A DNA stretch of 64,000 nucleotides from Candidatus Yanofskybacteria bacterium (GTDB lineage Bacteria; Patescibacteriota; Minisyncoccia; 2-02-FULL-40-12; GWA2-44-9), in the NCBI GenBank assembly GCA_020852375.1, contig JADZAY010000005.1, forward strand, positions 19,814 to 83,813, in the 5' to 3' direction. Below, piece by piece: positions 41,649 through 46,271 of this stretch. The position numbers and the translations under genes are program-made. The notes under the pieces were generated by a model, which was given only the letters and a program-made list of their open reading frames with translations, made no database searches and was not told the origin of the DNA. Positions within the stretch are counted from its first letter, which is position 1, and each line of letters starts with the position of its first letter.

Positions 41649-41668
41649 TATTGAGCGGGGTACGGGAA
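41649..41668 (-). repeat. 20-nt duplicate of the tRNA-Gly 3' end (TGAGCGGGGTACGGGAATCG)
   Basis: Exact direct repeat of 41821-41840, the T-arm/acceptor 3' part of tRNA-Gly, located 172 bp away. Confidence 0.6.
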
Positions 41669-41822
41669 TCGCCTTCGGTCTGCGCCACTCCGTCGAGCGT
41701 CGCAGCCTCGGGGCCGGGCCTCGCGGCAGTGACCGCTATCACTGCATCGCTCCGGCCGTTCGATTCCCGTATAGCACTGTTCGATACTAAAACAGCGCCC
41801 ACAGGGGCGCAATTTTAGTATG

Positions 41823-42023: not shown

Positions 42024-44432
42024 CTACTTTCCGTTCAGCTCGGGATACCGTCGTGCCCGGTAGGCATCGATCCGCGCTTCGATGCGCTGCGGGAACTTGG
42101 GTGGATCGCCGAGCACTCCGGCAGGTCCGTACAGCGCGAGCATGATCTCGCGTGCGACGGGGAGCGCAACGCTTCCGCCGGTCGCACGATTCGCGAGCGG
42201 TGCTCCGAAGTCGTCATATCCGACCCAGATACCGATGGTGACGCCATCGGGACCGTAGGTTGAGCAGATGAACCACGCATCGCGGAAGCTGTTCGATGTT
42301 CCCGTCTTTCCCATCACCTGGATGGGGAAGTTGCTGGTGTCGAGACTGCGTGCGGTGCCACTTGGCAGCCGTACTGTCCCTCGCAGGAGCTCCTGAACGA
42401 GATCCAGTTTTTCCGGAGGGATGGGGAACGGTTTGTCAGTGGCGGAAGCGCGATACAGCGGCGCGCCGTTCGCGTCGGTGACCGCACCGACGATGTGGGG
42501 CGAAGCGACGGTCCCGCTCGCGAGCGAGCGGTACGCGTTCGTCATCTCGAGGAGCGTGACGCTGCTGGCACCGAGCGCCGTCGAGATGTAGGGGTCGAGC
42601 TCGCTCTGGATGCCCAGCGTATGAGCCCAGGTGATGAGTGGTTCCGGCCCGCCGAGTTCGTCGCGGACCAAGCGCAGGATGGGGACATTGCGCGACTGAG
42701 CGATGGCTTCCCGGAGCGGAATGATGCCGAGATATCTCCCGTCATAATTCTTCACCGGCTTTTGCCAGCCGCCCATATTCACACTGATGGGTGTATCGGT
42801 GACGAGGTCGTCCGGGGTTTTCCCGCTCATGACCGCTGCCGCGGCGACGATGCCCTTCATGGTCGAACCGGGCTGCCGCTTGGCATGGATGGCACGGTTG
42901 TAGAGCGTGTAGTTGTGAAGCCGCTCGTCGTAGATGCCGCCGAACTCCGCCAAGATGTCGGCGTTCCGATTGCCGAGCACGACGACCGCGATCTGCGGAT
43001 GTGTTCCGTCGCGGGTGCCGTACTGGTTCACGTAGCCGGGCATGGTGGGAGAGTCGGTGCCGTAGATGCCATCGAGCGCTGCCGCGTTCACGATCGCCTG
43101 GATGTGGCGGTCGGCGGTCAGATGTACACGCACGCGTCCGGCGAGTAGGTCGCTGCGGGAGTACCCGAGGCTGTCCATCTCTTCCAGAGCGGTCGACACG
43201 ACCGCCGGCTCATCCGTTTTTGTCTTCAGTCGGGGAGTCTGCAGAATGAGCGGACGCGTCTTCAGCATGGTGAGACGCGAAGCATCCAGAAAGCCATTCT
43301 CGGCCATGCGGTCGAGTACGGCATTCCGCCGAGCGACCTGCTCGGCGCGGATCGACGGATCGTCGTCCAGCTGTGCGAACTGACCGGGCGCCGGAATGAT
43401 GCTGGCCAGGAACGCTGCCTCGTCCGGTGTGAGCGCTTCCATGTCTTTCCCGAAGTAGAAGCGAGCGCCGTAGGAGACGCCGTACACGCCGTGTCCCAGA
43501 TACACCAGGTTGGCGTACGACCCGAGGATGTACTCCTTGGCTTTCGTGCGCCCATCATACTGACCGAGCACGCCGTACCATAGCATTTCGCGGAACGTGT
43601 GGGACGGCGGGCGCGTCTCGATGAAGTGCTGGGTGAGCCCTCGCTCGAGGCGGACGGCGTACTTGATCTCGCGGACCTTGCGCGTCGCGTTATTGGTCCA
43701 CACCGTCCCCTTGAAGAGACGGATGACGCGCGTCACGATGTTGTCCACGAGCAGCTCATTTCCGCTCTGGCGGAGCAGCCAGTCTTCAAGGTAGATGTTC
43801 CGGGCGACCTGTTGCGTGATCGTGCTTGCGCCCTGCTGACGAAAGTTGAGAACGCTCCGGGTAGCGGCTTTGAACGCCGCGCGCGTGGTCGCTCGCCAGT
43901 CCCAGCCGTCGTGGCTCCAAAAACGCTTGTCCTCCGCGGACACGAGCGCTTGGCGAACGACTTCGGGAACCTGTTCCGATCCGATATTCTCGCGATAGGC
44001 GGTGGCAAGACGGATCGTGACCAGACCGTTTCGATCTAGGACATATCCGATCTGCGCCGGACGCCATTCGAGGAGTGTGCGGGGGTCGGGAGTGTCGCTG
44101 CCGTCGATGTAGATGTACCACGTCGGGTATGCGGCAACGGCGAGTACGAGCACTGCCGACTGAACGGTCCAGCGAACGTACCGATGTGCACGGAGGAAGG
44201 CCCGCGCGAGATCGAAGATATCCCGCAGAGCATGCCCGGCCGTGCGGACCGGTCCCAATCGGGGGTCTGCCCATTCGATGAACGGTACGGCGATGCGATC
44301 GCCGAACTTCCCGAGCAGCCATCCGATACTCGCCATGACCGCTGCGGTGCCGAGGGGCAGGAGTAGTCCTGCCCCTGCGGCGGCGATCACAACGATCACG
44401 ACCTTGAGGAGGACTTCAAGCGCCTCGAGCAT
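42024..44432 (-). CDS. ponA: class A penicillin-binding protein (bifunctional transglycosylase/transpeptidase, PBP1A)
   Basis: GT51 motifs (EDKRFWSHDGWD; RQGASTITQQVARNIYL); transpeptidase SxxK (PGSTMKG), SxN and KTG (MGKTGTS); 802 aa. Terminator 3' of the stop at about 41985-42023. Confidence 0.85.
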   Translation of the reverse strand: MLEALEVLLKVVIVVIAAAGAGLLLPLGTAAVMASIGWLLGKFGDRIAVPFIEWADPRLGPVRTAGHALRDIFDLARAFLRAHRYVRWTVQSAVLVLAVAAYPTWYIYIDGSDTPDPRTLLEWRPAQIGYVLDRNGLVTIRLATAYRENIGSEQVPEVVRQALVSAEDKRFWSHDGWDWRATTRAAFKAATRSVLNFRQQGASTITQQVARNIYLEDWLLRQSGNELLVDNIVTRVIRLFKGTVWTNNATRKVREIKYAVRLERGLTQHFIETRPPSHTFREMLWYGVLGQYDGRTKAKEYILGSYANLVYLGHGVYGVSYGARFYFGKDMEALTPDEAAFLASIIPAPGQFAQLDDDPSIRAEQVARRNAVLDRMAENGFLDASRLTMLKTRPLILQTPRLKTKTDEPAVVSTALEEMDSLGYSRSDLLAGRVRVHLTADRHIQAIVNAAALDGIYGTDSPTMPGYVNQYGTRDGTHPQIAVVVLGNRNADILAEFGGIYDERLHNYTLYNRAIHAKRQPGSTMKGIVAAAAVMSGKTPDDLVTDTPISVNMGGWQKPVKNYDGRYLGIIPLREAIAQSRNVPILRLVRDELGGPEPLITWAHTLGIQSELDPYISTALGASSVTLLEMTNAYRSLASGTVASPHIVGAVTDANGAPLYRASATDKPFPIPPEKLDLVQELLRGTVRLPSGTARSLDTSNFPIQVMGKTGTSNSFRDAWFICSTYGPDGVTIGIWVGYDDFGAPLANRATGGSVALPVAREIMLALYGPAGVLGDPPKFPQRIEARIDAYRARRYPELNGK

Positions 44433-44994
44433 GGTTTCACCTCTTGTAAACGAACTAAACGAACGCGGTGGTTATACCACGTTTTTCCTATGGCAACAAT
44501 CTCCACTCCCGCTCCCCTCGGCACCCCGACTCGGACGGTTTCTCGGCGCTCCCGGTCCGGAGCGCCTCATCCCTCACGCTCCCGCTCGGCAGTGACTCTG
44601 CCTCCCGGTCCGCGAAGCCTCGCTGGGGTGCCGAGGCGTTCAGTCGTGGAGGAAAGCACTCCCGTGCCCGGCATGTCCCCTGAGGACCGTCACGAATGCC
44701 GGAGCACGGACCCGTCAAGGGTCACTCCTTGACGGGTCCGGCACCGAGTGCAGAGCGAAGCCGCCGCGCAGGGGCGGCAAGCGTGTCCGAGGGGGATGTG
44801 TCGGGCGAGGGAGGGGGAAGAGTCGGGCCGCCGAGAATCGGCCTCGTCTCTCGTGTTGCCGTCGCGACACTTGGACTAGCCACCGCCTCGCGGCTGCGCC
44901 AGCTGACGCAGCATTGCTCCGGCGTTCGATTCTCGTCAGCTGAATCATTCGCGCAAAAGCAGGACCAGCAGTGGTCCCGTTTTTGTATGATGGT

Positions 44995-45077
44995 CGGGCC
45001 GCCGAGAATCGAACTCGGTCTCCGTCGCCACAGCGCCTGGGAATGCGAACTCAACGCATTCCCGCTCAATCCCAATG
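44995..45077 (-). pseudogene. tRNA-like 3' fragment with encoded CCA (anticodon-like hairpin, variable arm, T-arm, acceptor 3' strand) and no matching 5' acceptor strand in cis
   Basis: The reverse complement ends ...GGGAATGCGTTGAGTTCGCATTCCC...GACCGAGTTCGATTCTCGGCGGCCCGACCA. The complementary 5' acceptor CGGGCCG with a D-arm (GTATACCGGTAGTAC) is found only at 45175-45198, on the other side of tRNA-Pro. Confidence 0.3.
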
Positions 45078-45148
45078 TCGGGGTGCCCAGAATCGAACTG
45101 GGTCTACCTGTACCCAAAACAGGCGTACTACCGGTATACGACACCCCG
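45078..45148 (-). tRNA. tRNA-Pro(TGG)
   Basis: The reverse complement reads CGGGGTGTCGTATACCGGTAGTACGCCTGTTTTGGGTACAGGTAGACCCAGTTCGATTCTGGGCACCCCGA. Anticodon stem CCUGU/ACAGG and loop UUUGGGU give UGG. Confidence 0.7.
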
Positions 45149-45267
45149 ACATTGTTATTGAGCCCCACACACGTGTACTACCGGTATACTACGGCCCGTG
45201 AAGCAGTGGCATCATACCAGAATCTCCGTGCGTTGGCGAGGGGCATAAAGTATGGTAAAATATATCC

Positions 45268-45339
45268 GGCCTCATAGTTCAATGGATAGAACAGGAGACT
45301 TCTAAGCTCTTGATCCAGGTTCGATTCCTGGTGAGGCCA
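45268..45339 (+). tRNA. tRNA-Arg(TCT)
   Basis: GGCCTCATAGTTCAATGGATAGAACAGGAGACTTCTAAGCTCTTGATCCAGGTTCGATTCCTGGTGAGGCCA. The anticodon loop CUUCUAA gives UCU. Acceptor and T-arm pair perfectly. Confidence 0.75.
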
Positions 45340-45353
45340 CTGAGGAAAAGCGC

Positions 45354-46271
45354 ATGATCTCATACTGGAAACGGACAACTGAATCGGGGGCCACGGGGCA
45401 GGTGGTGGGACCGGCGACGGACACCTGGGCGTATGTGACCGACCCGACGGATGCGGAGTTGGATGCGCTCGTCGCCGACGGTGTGCTTGAGCGCGACCTC
45501 CTCCAGGATGCCATCGATCCGAACGAGGTGCCGCGCGTTCAGCATGAGCGGGGAGTCACCTATTTTTTCTTGCGCGCGCCGAGTGGACAGGCGGAAGGCA
45601 CACAAACTGTTCCGCTGCTGATCGCGCTCGCCCCAACATTTCTTTTGACGGTATCCCGTGCCCCGTTCACGTGGCTCGAGCGATTCCGTGGCGAGGAGAC
45701 CTACTCGACCGCGTGGCGCAGTCAGCTGGTGTGGCGCATATTCTTGGCGCTTGCCGGTCGCTATCAAACCACGGTGACCGATATCGCGCGACGTGTGCGG
45801 AGCAATGTCGGGGTCAGCCAGTCCATTCACAATGAAGATATCTTCCGCCTCGTCGCATACGAAGGAGTATTGAACGACATGCTCGCTGCGCTGGTCCCGA
45901 CGAGCGCCATTTTGGCCGGGGTTGCGACCGGAAAACACATGAAGATCTACGAAGAAGATAAAGATCTTATGGAAGACGTCGTTCTCAGTGTCGGGCAGGT
46001 CATTGAGGCGGCGAAAGCGCAACTCAAAACGACCGTGAACTACCGAGAGGCGTATTCGGTGATCGCTACGAACAACCTGAACCGGATCATCAAATTCCTG
46101 ACCTTGGTGACGGTCGTACTCACGGTGCCGATGGTGGTCTCGGGGCTCTATGGCATGAATGTCCGATTGCCGCTCGGCGACCATCCCTACGCGTTCGGAT
46201 TTATTGTGACGGGTACGATCGCGGTGGTCATCGGACTGCTCCGTGTGCTATCGGCAAAGCGCCTCCTATGA
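45354..46271 (+). CDS. corA: CorA-family magnesium/cobalt transporter
   Basis: Two C-terminal TM helices with the signature YGMNV (GMN motif); 305 aa. Confidence 0.8.
   Translation: MISYWKRTTESGATGQVVGPATDTWAYVTDPTDAELDALVADGVLERDLLQDAIDPNEVPRVQHERGVTYFFLRAPSGQAEGTQTVPLLIALAPTFLLTVSRAPFTWLERFRGEETYSTAWRSQLVWRIFLALAGRYQTTVTDIARRVRSNVGVSQSIHNEDIFRLVAYEGVLNDMLAALVPTSAILAGVATGKHMKIYEEDKDLMEDVVLSVGQVIEAAKAQLKTTVNYREAYSVIATNNLNRIIKFLTLVTVVLTVPMVVSGLYGMNVRLPLGDHPYAFGFIVTGTIAVVIGLLRVLSAKRLL

Follow-up and report, generated by a model that had tools for sequence, protein, structure and literature searches.

The locus described here lies in a 64-kb stretch of Candidatus Yanofskybacteria DNA (hereafter the window; approximately 60% G+C, from a single metagenome assembly), where the gene order runs from a penicillin-binding protein gene (PBP) through tRNA-Pro and tRNA-Arg to a gene for a CorA-family protein (45354–46271) that is 100% identical to one from a metagenome-assembled Candidatus Yanofskybacteria genome and whose named homologues all come from Patescibacteria, or candidate phyla radiation (CPR), bacteria. 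ARAGORN and Rfam place a tRNA-Pro(TGG) at 45078–45148 on the minus strand and a tRNA-Arg(TCT) at 45268–45340 on the plus strand, and neither reports another tRNA near the locus. A preceding sequence-only reading had described further tRNA pieces around the tRNA-Pro gene, all of which are present, far beyond chance, and its principal fragments are indeed two halves of one tRNA flanking the intact gene. Our analysis suggests that the whole is a nested tRNA gene, in which a resident tRNA-Pro(UGG) gene has been cut in the anticodon arm by a 143-nucleotide (nt) protein-free cassette, and the tRNA-Pro(UGG) carried by the cassette does the decoding. We consider this explanation, taken together with the expression and spread proposed below, probable by a modest measure; within it, the interrupted resident gene, the replacement cassette and the recurrent, structurally conserved family are very secure.

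The interrupted gene and the cassette within it

The outer 5′ part (45169–45198, minus strand) corresponds to nt 1–30 of a tRNA-Pro(UGG) and, read from 45198 to 45169 as CGGGCCG-TA-GTATACCGGTAGTAC-A-CGTGT, comprises the acceptor 5′ strand, the D-arm and the 5′ strand of the anticodon stem. The outer 3′ part (44994–45025, minus strand; nt 41–73) reads ACG-GAGA-CCGAG-TTCGATT-CTCGG-CGGCCCG-A from 45025 to 44994 and supplies three nt of the anticodon stem, the variable loop, a perfect T-arm, the acceptor 3′ strand and the discriminator. The acceptor strands of the two parts are perfectly complementary to each other. Eight orthologous loci, reached through homologues of CorA, identify the gene to which these parts belonged (labels of the form L0xx denote fetched loci of relatives and other species). 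In the closest relative, L001, CorA is 85% identical, the order PBP, tRNA-Pro, tRNA-Arg, CorA is the same as in the window, and the flanks are collinear on both sides of tRNA-Pro. Its intact tRNA-Pro(UGG), CGGGCCGTAGTATACCGGTAGTACACGTGTTTTGGGTACACGGAGACCGAGTTCGATTCTCGGCGGCCCGA, matches the outer halves at 30/30 nt (nt 1–30) and 33/33 nt (45025–44993, nt 41–73 plus one base). The seven further loci (L002–L004, L066 and L068–L070) have CorA proteins 61–67% identical to that of the window, and most of their tRNA-Pro genes have the anticodon stem CGTGT/ACACG; one intact tRNA-Pro(UGG) is present in 8/8 orthologous loci (CorA identity 61–85%).

A BLAST alignment of 172 nt with L001 (89.5% identity) contains the outer 5′ part and stops exactly at 45169, and ancestral homology restarts at 45025, at nt 41. 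Ancestral nt 32–40 (TTTGGGTAC), which comprise the loop and two stem bases, are lost and replaced by the insert. Judged from this comparison, the outer halves are the resident tRNA-Pro(UGG) gene of the lineage, interrupted between nt 31 and 41 by 143 nt. The cassette is missing from 8/8 orthologous loci and was gained by the window after the split from L001. A comparison of orthologous loci had been suggested with integrases or phage genes in mind; it gives collinear flanks and an intact gene in the relatives, and no integrase lies between the halves. The anticodon stem of the outer gene can re-form three of its five pairs (27–29/41–43), around a loop remnant GTGGGG. As the anticodon arm cannot be regained, the outer gene is a non-decoding, presumably co-transcribed relic, and neither a split nor a permuted tRNA; the inner tRNA, with an identical anticodon, leaves it nothing to decode.

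The cassette (45026–45168, minus strand; boundaries from BLAST against L001) is ordered, 5′ to 3′ on that strand, as G and TGGGG, a 15-nt leader, tRNA-Pro(UGG), a 14-nt trailer, a hairpin HP1, AGG and a small hairpin HP2 that adjoins nt 41. The leader (GCTCAATAACAATGT, 45149–45163) and the trailer (CATTGGGATTGAGC, 45064–45077) are the 5′ and 3′ strands of a helix encoded as an inverted repeat, with 13/15 Watson–Crick pairs, and the discriminator A (A73) at 45078 pairs with T at position −1; the TGGGG motif (45163–45167) precedes the leader and overlaps its first G. HP1 (GGGAATGCG-TTGAGTT-CGCATTCCC, 45039–45063) has 9 bp and is unique in the window, and HP2 (CGC-TGTG-GCG, 45026–45035) is preceded by GG, the two together spanning 45026–45037. 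The sequence-only reading had taken HP1 for an anticodon arm and the next hairpin for a variable arm, within a 3′ part at 44995–45077; both hairpins are parts of the cassette, and the 3′ part shrinks to 44994–45025, since ancestral homology restarts only at nt 41. Its ‘encoded CCA’ (44993–44991) is the junction with a second insert, E2 (described below), where L001 reads GAC followed directly by ATTG.

The inner complete tRNA-Pro(UGG), which we call tRNA B (45078–45148, minus strand; found by ARAGORN, 53.2 bits for the Rfam tRNA model), has no second intact tRNA-Pro gene beside it at the locus. It matches the ancestral, outer gene at 60/71 nt, and among the 11 differences those in the acceptor, anticodon and T stems are compensatory by inspection. 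This pattern of identity and compensation argues that tRNA B is a functional tRNA of separate descent and not a fresh duplicate. Eleven nt of the cassette leader equal the native tRNA-Pro leader of the relative L069 at the same offset. An exact search with a 25-nt core of tRNA B matched no viral contig; it did match 19 metagenome contigs, each of them carrying an ordinary tRNA-Pro gene that stands alone and has a different acceptor stem. The inner tRNA is not notably near other nested inner tRNAs, and these searches yielded no donor. In IMG/VR, a search with the CPR-type tRNA-Pro D-arm gave 18 matches with no tRNA among them, and the tRNA B core was not found.

The 204-nt stretch from one outer end to the other has a predicted folding energy of −99.3 kcal/mol (z = −6.1 relative to shuffled controls), in a structure in which the outer acceptor stem closes and a long helix carries tRNA-Pro at its end. 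The outer 5′ part is closely preceded by a promoter-like site (45211–45239, minus strand) with TCGCCA, a 17-nt spacer and a TG-extended TATGAT, the TGGTATGAT box of which is conserved in L001, and behind the outer 3′ part stands a hairpin with A/T runs on both sides. Only this one promoter-like site could drive the inner tRNA on this strand and, since it lies upstream of the outer 5′ part, we infer that the outer 5′ part is transcribed as the leader of the inner tRNA.

Recurrence and covariation across species

One genome from each of 185,579 species was searched for pairs of tRNA-Pro D-arms spaced too tightly for tandem genes, with an intact D-arm demanded in both copies. A first double-D-arm pattern with 12-nt arms was lengthened before the genome scan; on viral contigs, the 12-nt version gave six matches, all coding tandem repeats and not tRNAs. 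The scan found 17 species besides the window organism, with labels that include Paceibacterota, Kaiserbacteria, Vogelbacteria, Doudnabacteria, Saccharibacteria, Parcubacteria and Minisyncoccia, three being unassigned and one assigned to Bdellovibrionales. Their common order in all 17 is outer 5′ part, leader, complete inner tRNA-Pro, complementary trailer, linker and outer 3′ part. A perfectly complementary outer acceptor 3′ strand lies 170–280 nt downstream in 15/18 loci, the window included, and the outer 3′ half is wholly missing in three loci.

At least three linker classes can be told apart among the nested loci. In class 1 (the window, L031, L036–L038, L040–L042 and L046), the inner gene stands between TGGGG and leader on one side and trailer, HP1, GYGG and HP2 on the other. 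Class 2 (L033–L035) has the conserved ends CNNG-CCCCCAC and GTGGGGG-TGAA, and in class 3 (L032 and L045) the flanks of the cassette copy the local flanks. We define the class-1 layout as outer nt 1–31, TGGGG, leader, tRNA, complementary trailer, hairpin, GYGG, small hairpin and outer nt 41–73; on this layout the window aligns column by column with L031, L036, L037, L038, L040 and L042. A hairpin at the position of HP1 is present in all class-1 relatives, and the equivalent of HP2, GYGG followed by a 3–8-bp stem usually with a GAA loop, adjoins outer nt 41 in every class-1 member. The window deviates in its linker, AGG for GYGG, and in its HP2 loop, TGTG for GAA.

RNAalifold applied to seven class-1 members recovers the nested fold. 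Standard pairs fill 93.4% of the alignment cells, compared with 35–52% when the partners are slid by 1–3 columns, and 36/67 pairs show compensatory change, compared with 5–12 in the slid controls; none of 500 shuffles reached the observed values (0/500). Arms of the same locus pair at 94–99% and arms of different loci at 56% (99% and 56%, respectively, for HP1, where the pair types covary), and class-1 leaders and arms average 44% identity between loci. The complementarity score of leader and trailer is 12–18 in most nested inner tRNAs, against 0–8 in the other tRNAs of all fetched loci; the window and the class-2 loci score 5–7 in this test, which is ungapped, their helices having internal loops. 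Across 19 leader/trailer helices we count 290 Watson–Crick, 11 G–U and 3 A–C pairs on the tRNA strand. The excess of G–U over A–C (p of about 0.03 by a binomial estimate) mildly favours constraint on an RNA of tRNA sense, and there is moderate support for a role of the helices at the RNA level.

In each of the 15 loci with both outer strands preserved, at least one compensated pair sets the inner acceptor stem apart from the outer one. In L035, L037, L040 and L045, one base pair is almost the sole difference between inner and outer gene, and in several loci that difference is C6–G67 to T6–A67. Such distinct stems are consistent with selection against mispairing between layers, an enrichment statistic for the difference being inflated by the search pattern. 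In L032, L041, L046 and L047, the outer T-loops carry further structured inserts of 30–90 nt, with the T stem and acceptor strand intact around them, and the inserts of L041 and L046 look homologous by eye.

Two loci extend the pattern. L037 (690–1150) is a tRNA-Pro nest three layers deep, in which a second layer with its own leader/trailer helix encloses the working tRNA. Its outermost layer has decayed, having lost the acceptor 5′ strand and gained hairpin inserts in the D- and T-loops; it retains a 30-bp leader/trailer helix (28 Watson–Crick and 2 G–U pairs) together with its own HP1 and HP2, and it differs from the inner layer by compensatory changes. In L034 (2440–2600), a tRNA-Arg(CCT) stands inside class-2 ends, CCCG-CCCCCACACC and GGTGTGTGGG-TGAA, the same as those around the nested tRNA-Pro of this genome, so nesting is not limited to proline tRNAs. 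A duplicated 5′ fragment of the tRNA-Arg, from the acceptor to the D-loop, lies upstream of it, which places the insertion point in the D-loop.

Inserts behind tRNA 3′ ends

The spacer between tRNA-Pro and the PBP gene is approximately 560 nt long in the window and approximately 75 nt in L001. Directly behind the outer 3′ part lies E2 (44841–44993, minus strand), a 153-nt insert that is missing in L001 and contains a bidirectional terminator-like hairpin (44962–44977), the conserved blocks CCGGAGCRATGC and GCCGCGAGGC and a 7-bp mini-helix. At its right border, 19 nt of the tRNA-Pro 3′ end, counted from the T-loop on, are repeated exactly and in direct orientation (CGATTCTCGGCGGCCCGAC, 44822–44840, minus strand). 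The extra 3′-end repeats seen by the sequence-only reading downstream are thus there; its third 3′ module exists as a copy, with its extent corrected to these 19 nt, and its T-arm-like mini-helix is real, with arms at 44902–44908 and 44934–44940, as a part of E2 that encloses an inverted 12-nt copy of the T-loop and T-stem (44924–44935). A degenerate extension upstream of the 19-nt repeat resembles tRNA nt 18–55. A full pseudogene at this place was considered and rejected: the 3′ 35 nt are clearly tRNA-homologous, and the likeness to a D-arm and anticodon stem is not significant alone and is partly shared with the E2 copy behind tRNA-Gly.

That second copy follows tRNA-Gly(TCC) (41652–41821, minus strand) and consists of an insert of approximately 150 nt (41672–41821) and a 20-nt direct repeat of the tRNA-Gly 3′ end (41652–41671). 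It has the same layout, including a bidirectional terminator-like hairpin and an inverted T-loop/T-stem copy, is 79% identical to the first over 53 nt (E-value of about 1e-5) and is missing behind tRNA-Gly in L001. The same element, again in this layout, stands behind the nested tRNA-Pro of L036. E2 sits at tRNA 3′ ends and duplicates the last 19–20 nt, and the third 3′ module, the mini-helix and the apparent CCA are parts of it. In the copy behind tRNA-Gly, the ends could base-pair on the other strand as a closing stem with a terminator after it, and this copy might specify a small RNA antisense to the tRNA 3′ end. E2 (44822–44993 with its repeat) and the tRNA-Gly copy resemble attachment-site duplications at tRNA 3′ ends in that an exact 19–20-nt direct repeat bounds the insert. 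They differ from integrative elements in their length of approximately 150–170 nt, in having no recombinase, in standing behind two tRNAs with repeats of their own and in the inverted T-loop copy inside; nor does attachment-site duplication explain the upstream 5′ half.

A third extra segment, E3 (44500–44821, minus strand; 322 nt), lies between the 19-nt repeat and the ancestral 3′ flank, which restarts with ATTGTTGC at 44499. It is GC-rich and unique among all sequences compared, with short internal direct repeats, a perfect 14-bp hairpin (44707–44740) and an inverted 14-nt fragment, CTCGGCACCCCGAC (44517–44530, plus strand), that matches a tRNA-Pro 3′ end with an inner-type acceptor. Another insert family was seen behind the ordinary tRNA-Pro genes of L012 (626–905) and L028 (460–640). 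It comprises a terminator, an inverted copy of the T-arm and acceptor 3′ strand, a conserved core GGGGTCGGGGAAACGG.AGTTTCCCCGTGGCGGAGGTACTGGAA and a directly repeated tRNA 3′ end; its opposite strand would form an acceptor/T-arm-like minihelix closing an RNA of approximately 230 nt, for which no Rfam or tmRNA match was obtained. In L069 (996–1420), approximately 425 nt with a 103-amino-acid open reading frame (ORF) of no known family lie between tRNA-Pro and tRNA-Arg, and the collinear DNA upstream of its tRNA-Pro bears a weak likeness to a decayed tRNA-Pro 5′ half (p of about 0.09).

Expression, origin and significance of the nested gene

In the mechanism that we favour, the old promoter would drive one transcript containing the outer 5′ part, leader, inner tRNA, trailer, two hairpins and outer 3′ part. 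The leader and trailer would pair in the RNA and lengthen the inner acceptor stem by approximately 15 bp, and this long stem would hold the inner cloverleaf at its tip, apart from the near-identical outer halves, which would pair with each other. Ordinary tRNA processing could then free the inner tRNA, through RNase P and 3′ trimming and possibly after a double-strand cut in the long stem, leaving the outer halves as non-decoding relics. The cassette is one of a family present across CPR/Patescibacteria, which would most likely spread by recombination through the flanking conserved tRNA halves, for example after DNA uptake from relatives. The 11 nt shared between the cassette leader and the native leader of L069 make a chromosomal source in a related CPR lineage likelier than a phage. 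Once placed, a cassette could not be lost without losing the sole working gene; repeated invasion of the current inner tRNA would yield Russian-doll nests, and recombination between direct repeats would delete one side and leave orphan halves.

Several observations weigh against this account. Transcription through the outer halves and a function of the helices in RNA are what we infer from their arrangement and covariation; the bias of G–U over A–C is modest, and covariation would also arise from hairpins acting as DNA. The preservation of outer 5′ halves is partly ascertainment, given a scan that demanded both D-arms. Recombination through the halves leaves the birth of the first cassette unexplained, and it does not account for class-2 ends conserved around both the tRNA-Pro and the tRNA-Arg of one genome; these ends, surrounding two different tRNAs, suggest that an active insertion mechanism also exists. 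The cassette flanks of L045 and L032 look like the flanking DNA of their own loci, which fits in-situ duplication better than import. Moreover, the 64 kb in view are part of a genome that may hold a second tRNA-Pro(UGG) elsewhere, and they come from one metagenome assembly.

In its logic the locus resembles tRNA-dependent lysogeny, and in its position archaeal tRNA introns. In the tRNA-dependent lysogeny of actinobacteriophages, the closest published concept, an inserting prophage knocks out a tRNA gene that the host needs, does not restore it and complements the loss (PMC10865867, Guerrero-Bustamante & Hatfull 2024); in the window, too, a host tRNA is inactivated and replaced, with the outer tRNA-Pro(UGG) cut and the inner tRNA-Pro(UGG) intact. 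Those prophages span 40–60 kb, with a tyrosine integrase and a common core of approximately 10 bp, whereas the cassette has 143 nt and no gene; unlike theirs, its replacement tRNA lies inside the interrupted gene and relies on the promoter of that gene, its helices covary and its nests can be several layers deep. No recombinase or element body between attachment sites is found in the 143 nt of the cassette or the 153 nt of E2, which hold no credible ORF and have flanks collinear with relatives. Class 1 also departs from miniature inverted-repeat transposable elements (MITEs) and insertion sequences, as its arms are 44% identical between loci and covary, and 9 nt of the target are lost with no target duplication; class-2 relatives do have conserved ends and may be MITE-like.

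Archaeal split and intron-containing tRNAs (Nanoarchaeum equitans and Caldivirga; canonical 37/38 introns) resemble the locus in a break in or near the anticodon loop and in complementary sequences adjoining the halves, a role taken here by the leader/trailer helix with its 13/15 Watson–Crick pairs. Unlike them, the window has a bacterial gene with a whole tRNA inside, presumably expressed as one transcript in the normal order, and an arm that cannot be restored. Its halves are not at separate loci, being 143 nt apart on one strand with a single promoter-like site. The predicted fold has no bulge–helix–bulge motif at the borders, where it shows a symmetric 3 × 3 internal loop and continuous helices in place of a 3-4-3 motif, and joining the exons would not give a 5-bp stem, a 7-nt loop, U33 and an anticodon. 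A permuted gene of the Cyanidioschyzon type is contradicted by the order of the parts on the coding strand, the 5′ part (45169–45198) being upstream of the 3′ part (44994–45025). Neither idea of the sequence-only reading is supported, that of a permuted tRNA on account of this order, and that of a split tRNA able to mature on account of the missing nt 32–40, the three of five stem pairs, the missing bulge–helix–bulge and the identical inner anticodon. The bacterial group I introns of tRNA-Leu(UAA), tRNA-fMet, tRNA-Arg and other tRNAs are, like the cassette, structured, horizontally mobile inserts in the anticodon loop that act at the RNA level and conserve structure more than sequence. In contrast to them, the cassette has approximately 70 nt of non-tRNA sequence, too little for an intron core, and exons that cannot be restored; the group I intron model gave no match up to an E-value of 10 in 44400–45500 and none in 19 related loci. 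The intron of archaeal pre-tRNA-Trp houses a box C/D guide RNA. It resembles the locus in placing a second functional RNA inside a tRNA interruption, freed in processing; in that case a guide RNA travels inside a host that is spliced into a working tRNA, whereas in the window the working tRNA is the passenger and its host is dead.

Rfam searches of the window region and 19–21 related loci, at gathering and at permissive thresholds, gave tRNA matches and noise and nothing else, and the cassette matches no family. Readings as a tmRNA, a selenocysteine tRNA or a Y-RNA-like molecule were rejected: ARAGORN and Rfam report no tmRNA, the acceptor stem CGGGCCG/CGGCCCG has no G–U pair, TTGAGTT is not a selenocysteine loop and no family matches. 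Nested tRNA genes appear undescribed in CPR or other bacteria in the literature that we covered, which was incomplete, so an earlier description is possible.

The likeness to lysogeny invites a different history, in which a phage or element of the tRNA-dependent-lysogeny kind hit the anticodon loop, destroyed tRNA-Pro and brought its own copy, and later deletions left the tRNA and attachment-site DNA. Anticodon loops and T-loops are reportedly classic integrase targets, as Williams is said to have described in 2002. The 19-nt direct repeat of a tRNA 3′ end at the locus is a typical attachment-site signature, and a disrupted tRNA with a same-isotype replacement is documented in mycobacteriophages (PMC10865867). 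We nevertheless regard such a remnant as unlikely, because the halves enclose no integrase or ORF, the gene order on either side is undisturbed, one compact layout with covarying helices in 17 species is not what independent random deletions would yield, IMG/VR contigs offered neither a tRNA-Pro with this D-arm nor the tRNA B core, and the cassette leader resembles the chromosomal tRNA-Pro leader of a relative. The suggestion that integrative-element activity had shredded tRNA ends here fails for the nested part, with its 143 nt, no integrase and a layout found in 17 other species; it holds for the 3′-end-duplicating insertion, which explains the third module and the mini-helix. A purely local origin would need two slippage or tandem-duplication events (leader plus nt 1–36, and nt 41 to the downstream flank) followed by divergence. 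Formally, a nest does equal two abutting tandem duplications, the inner leader, the trailer and even the first 7–8 nt of the next gene copy the outer flanks in L045 and L032, and in four loci a single base pair separates inner from outer gene. We find this history rather improbable for the family as a whole. In the window, the inner gene differs at 11/71 positions while the outer halves match L001 completely, so the copies are not recent duplicates, and the inner leader and trailer are unlike the outer flanks. The junction features TGGGG, HP1, GYGG and HP2 are common to distant lineages, which favours common descent of the class-1 cassette over repeated de novo birth. That the assembly produced the nest, by fusing strain variants into a chimera at short repeats in tRNA sequence, is scarcely credible: the window is part of a metagenome-assembled genome and the tRNA-Pro copies do share 15–19-nt repeats, but these are shorter than usual assembly k-mers, and the layout occurs in 17 independent assemblies from different projects and assemblers.

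Two further alternatives would give the outer tRNA a task. If it were still a functional interrupted tRNA, the cassette would be an intron excised through RNase P and RNase Z cuts, or the halves a split tRNA held together by the leader/trailer helix, and both tRNAs would be made. In class-1 relatives the insert starts right after nt 37, the canonical intron site, and the outer acceptor and T stems are intact; removal of the insert from L033 would give a perfect CUUGGGU loop, and in L031 the outer gene is of UGG type and the inner gene CGG. In the split tRNAs of Nanoarchaeum, complementary sequences adjoin the halves, as they do the outer halves here. We judge this very unlikely all the same, since the window is without nt 32–40 and can form only three of five anticodon-stem pairs around the remnant GTGGGG, nothing would be gained from an identical inner anticodon, and neither a bulge–helix–bulge motif nor a match to any ribozyme, group I introns included, is present; U33 would be missing from the joined loop of L034 and L035, and several outer T-loops carry 30–90-nt inserts. 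Alternatively, the outer tRNA-like shell could itself be a selected product, a scaffold with an expanded anticodon domain that gives processing a platform, caps and protects the precursor ends, or diverts nucleases or tRNA-binding enzymes as a decoy. The perfectly paired outer acceptor stems in 15/18 loci, with compensatory differences between loci, the covariation of HP1 and HP2 outside the inner tRNA, and inner and outer acceptor stems that are always distinct, would all fit. Doubt about such a role is strong: the oldest shell of L037 has no acceptor 5′ strand and has D- and T-loop inserts, three loci have no outer 3′ half, the preservation of the outer 5′ half is inflated by the search pattern, and the shell-less relatives all carry an intact tRNA-Pro gene.

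Beyond the nested gene with a replacement cassette, which we continue to prefer, a broader proposal is tentative and may well prove wrong. CPR bacteria might harbour a hitherto undescribed class of protein-free, RNA-structured selfish cassettes that enter tRNA genes through the anticodon arm, in some cases through the D- or T-loop, supply a replacement tRNA, either brought along or copied, and re-invade their own cargo into multi-layer nests. These would amount to a new bacterial tRNA intervening sequence removed by maturation enzymes acting on the embedded tRNA, and in some members (L031 and L033) the outer tRNA might be needed and reassembled.

Gene finders for tRNA report the inner gene alone, so the nested architecture is invisible in present annotations, though one strict pattern finds it in 17 species. 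It indicates that an essential tRNA gene can be replaced horizontally without a visible recombinase, and it may represent a neutral ratchet, in which a cassette cannot be lost once the resident gene is cut. As a natural bacterial counterpart to archaeal split and intron-containing tRNAs, the nested gene raises RNase P, RNase Z and RNase III as candidate ‘splicing’ enzymes for nested precursors. As markers of past invasion, the fragments may help to trace DNA exchange among uncultivated CPR lineages.

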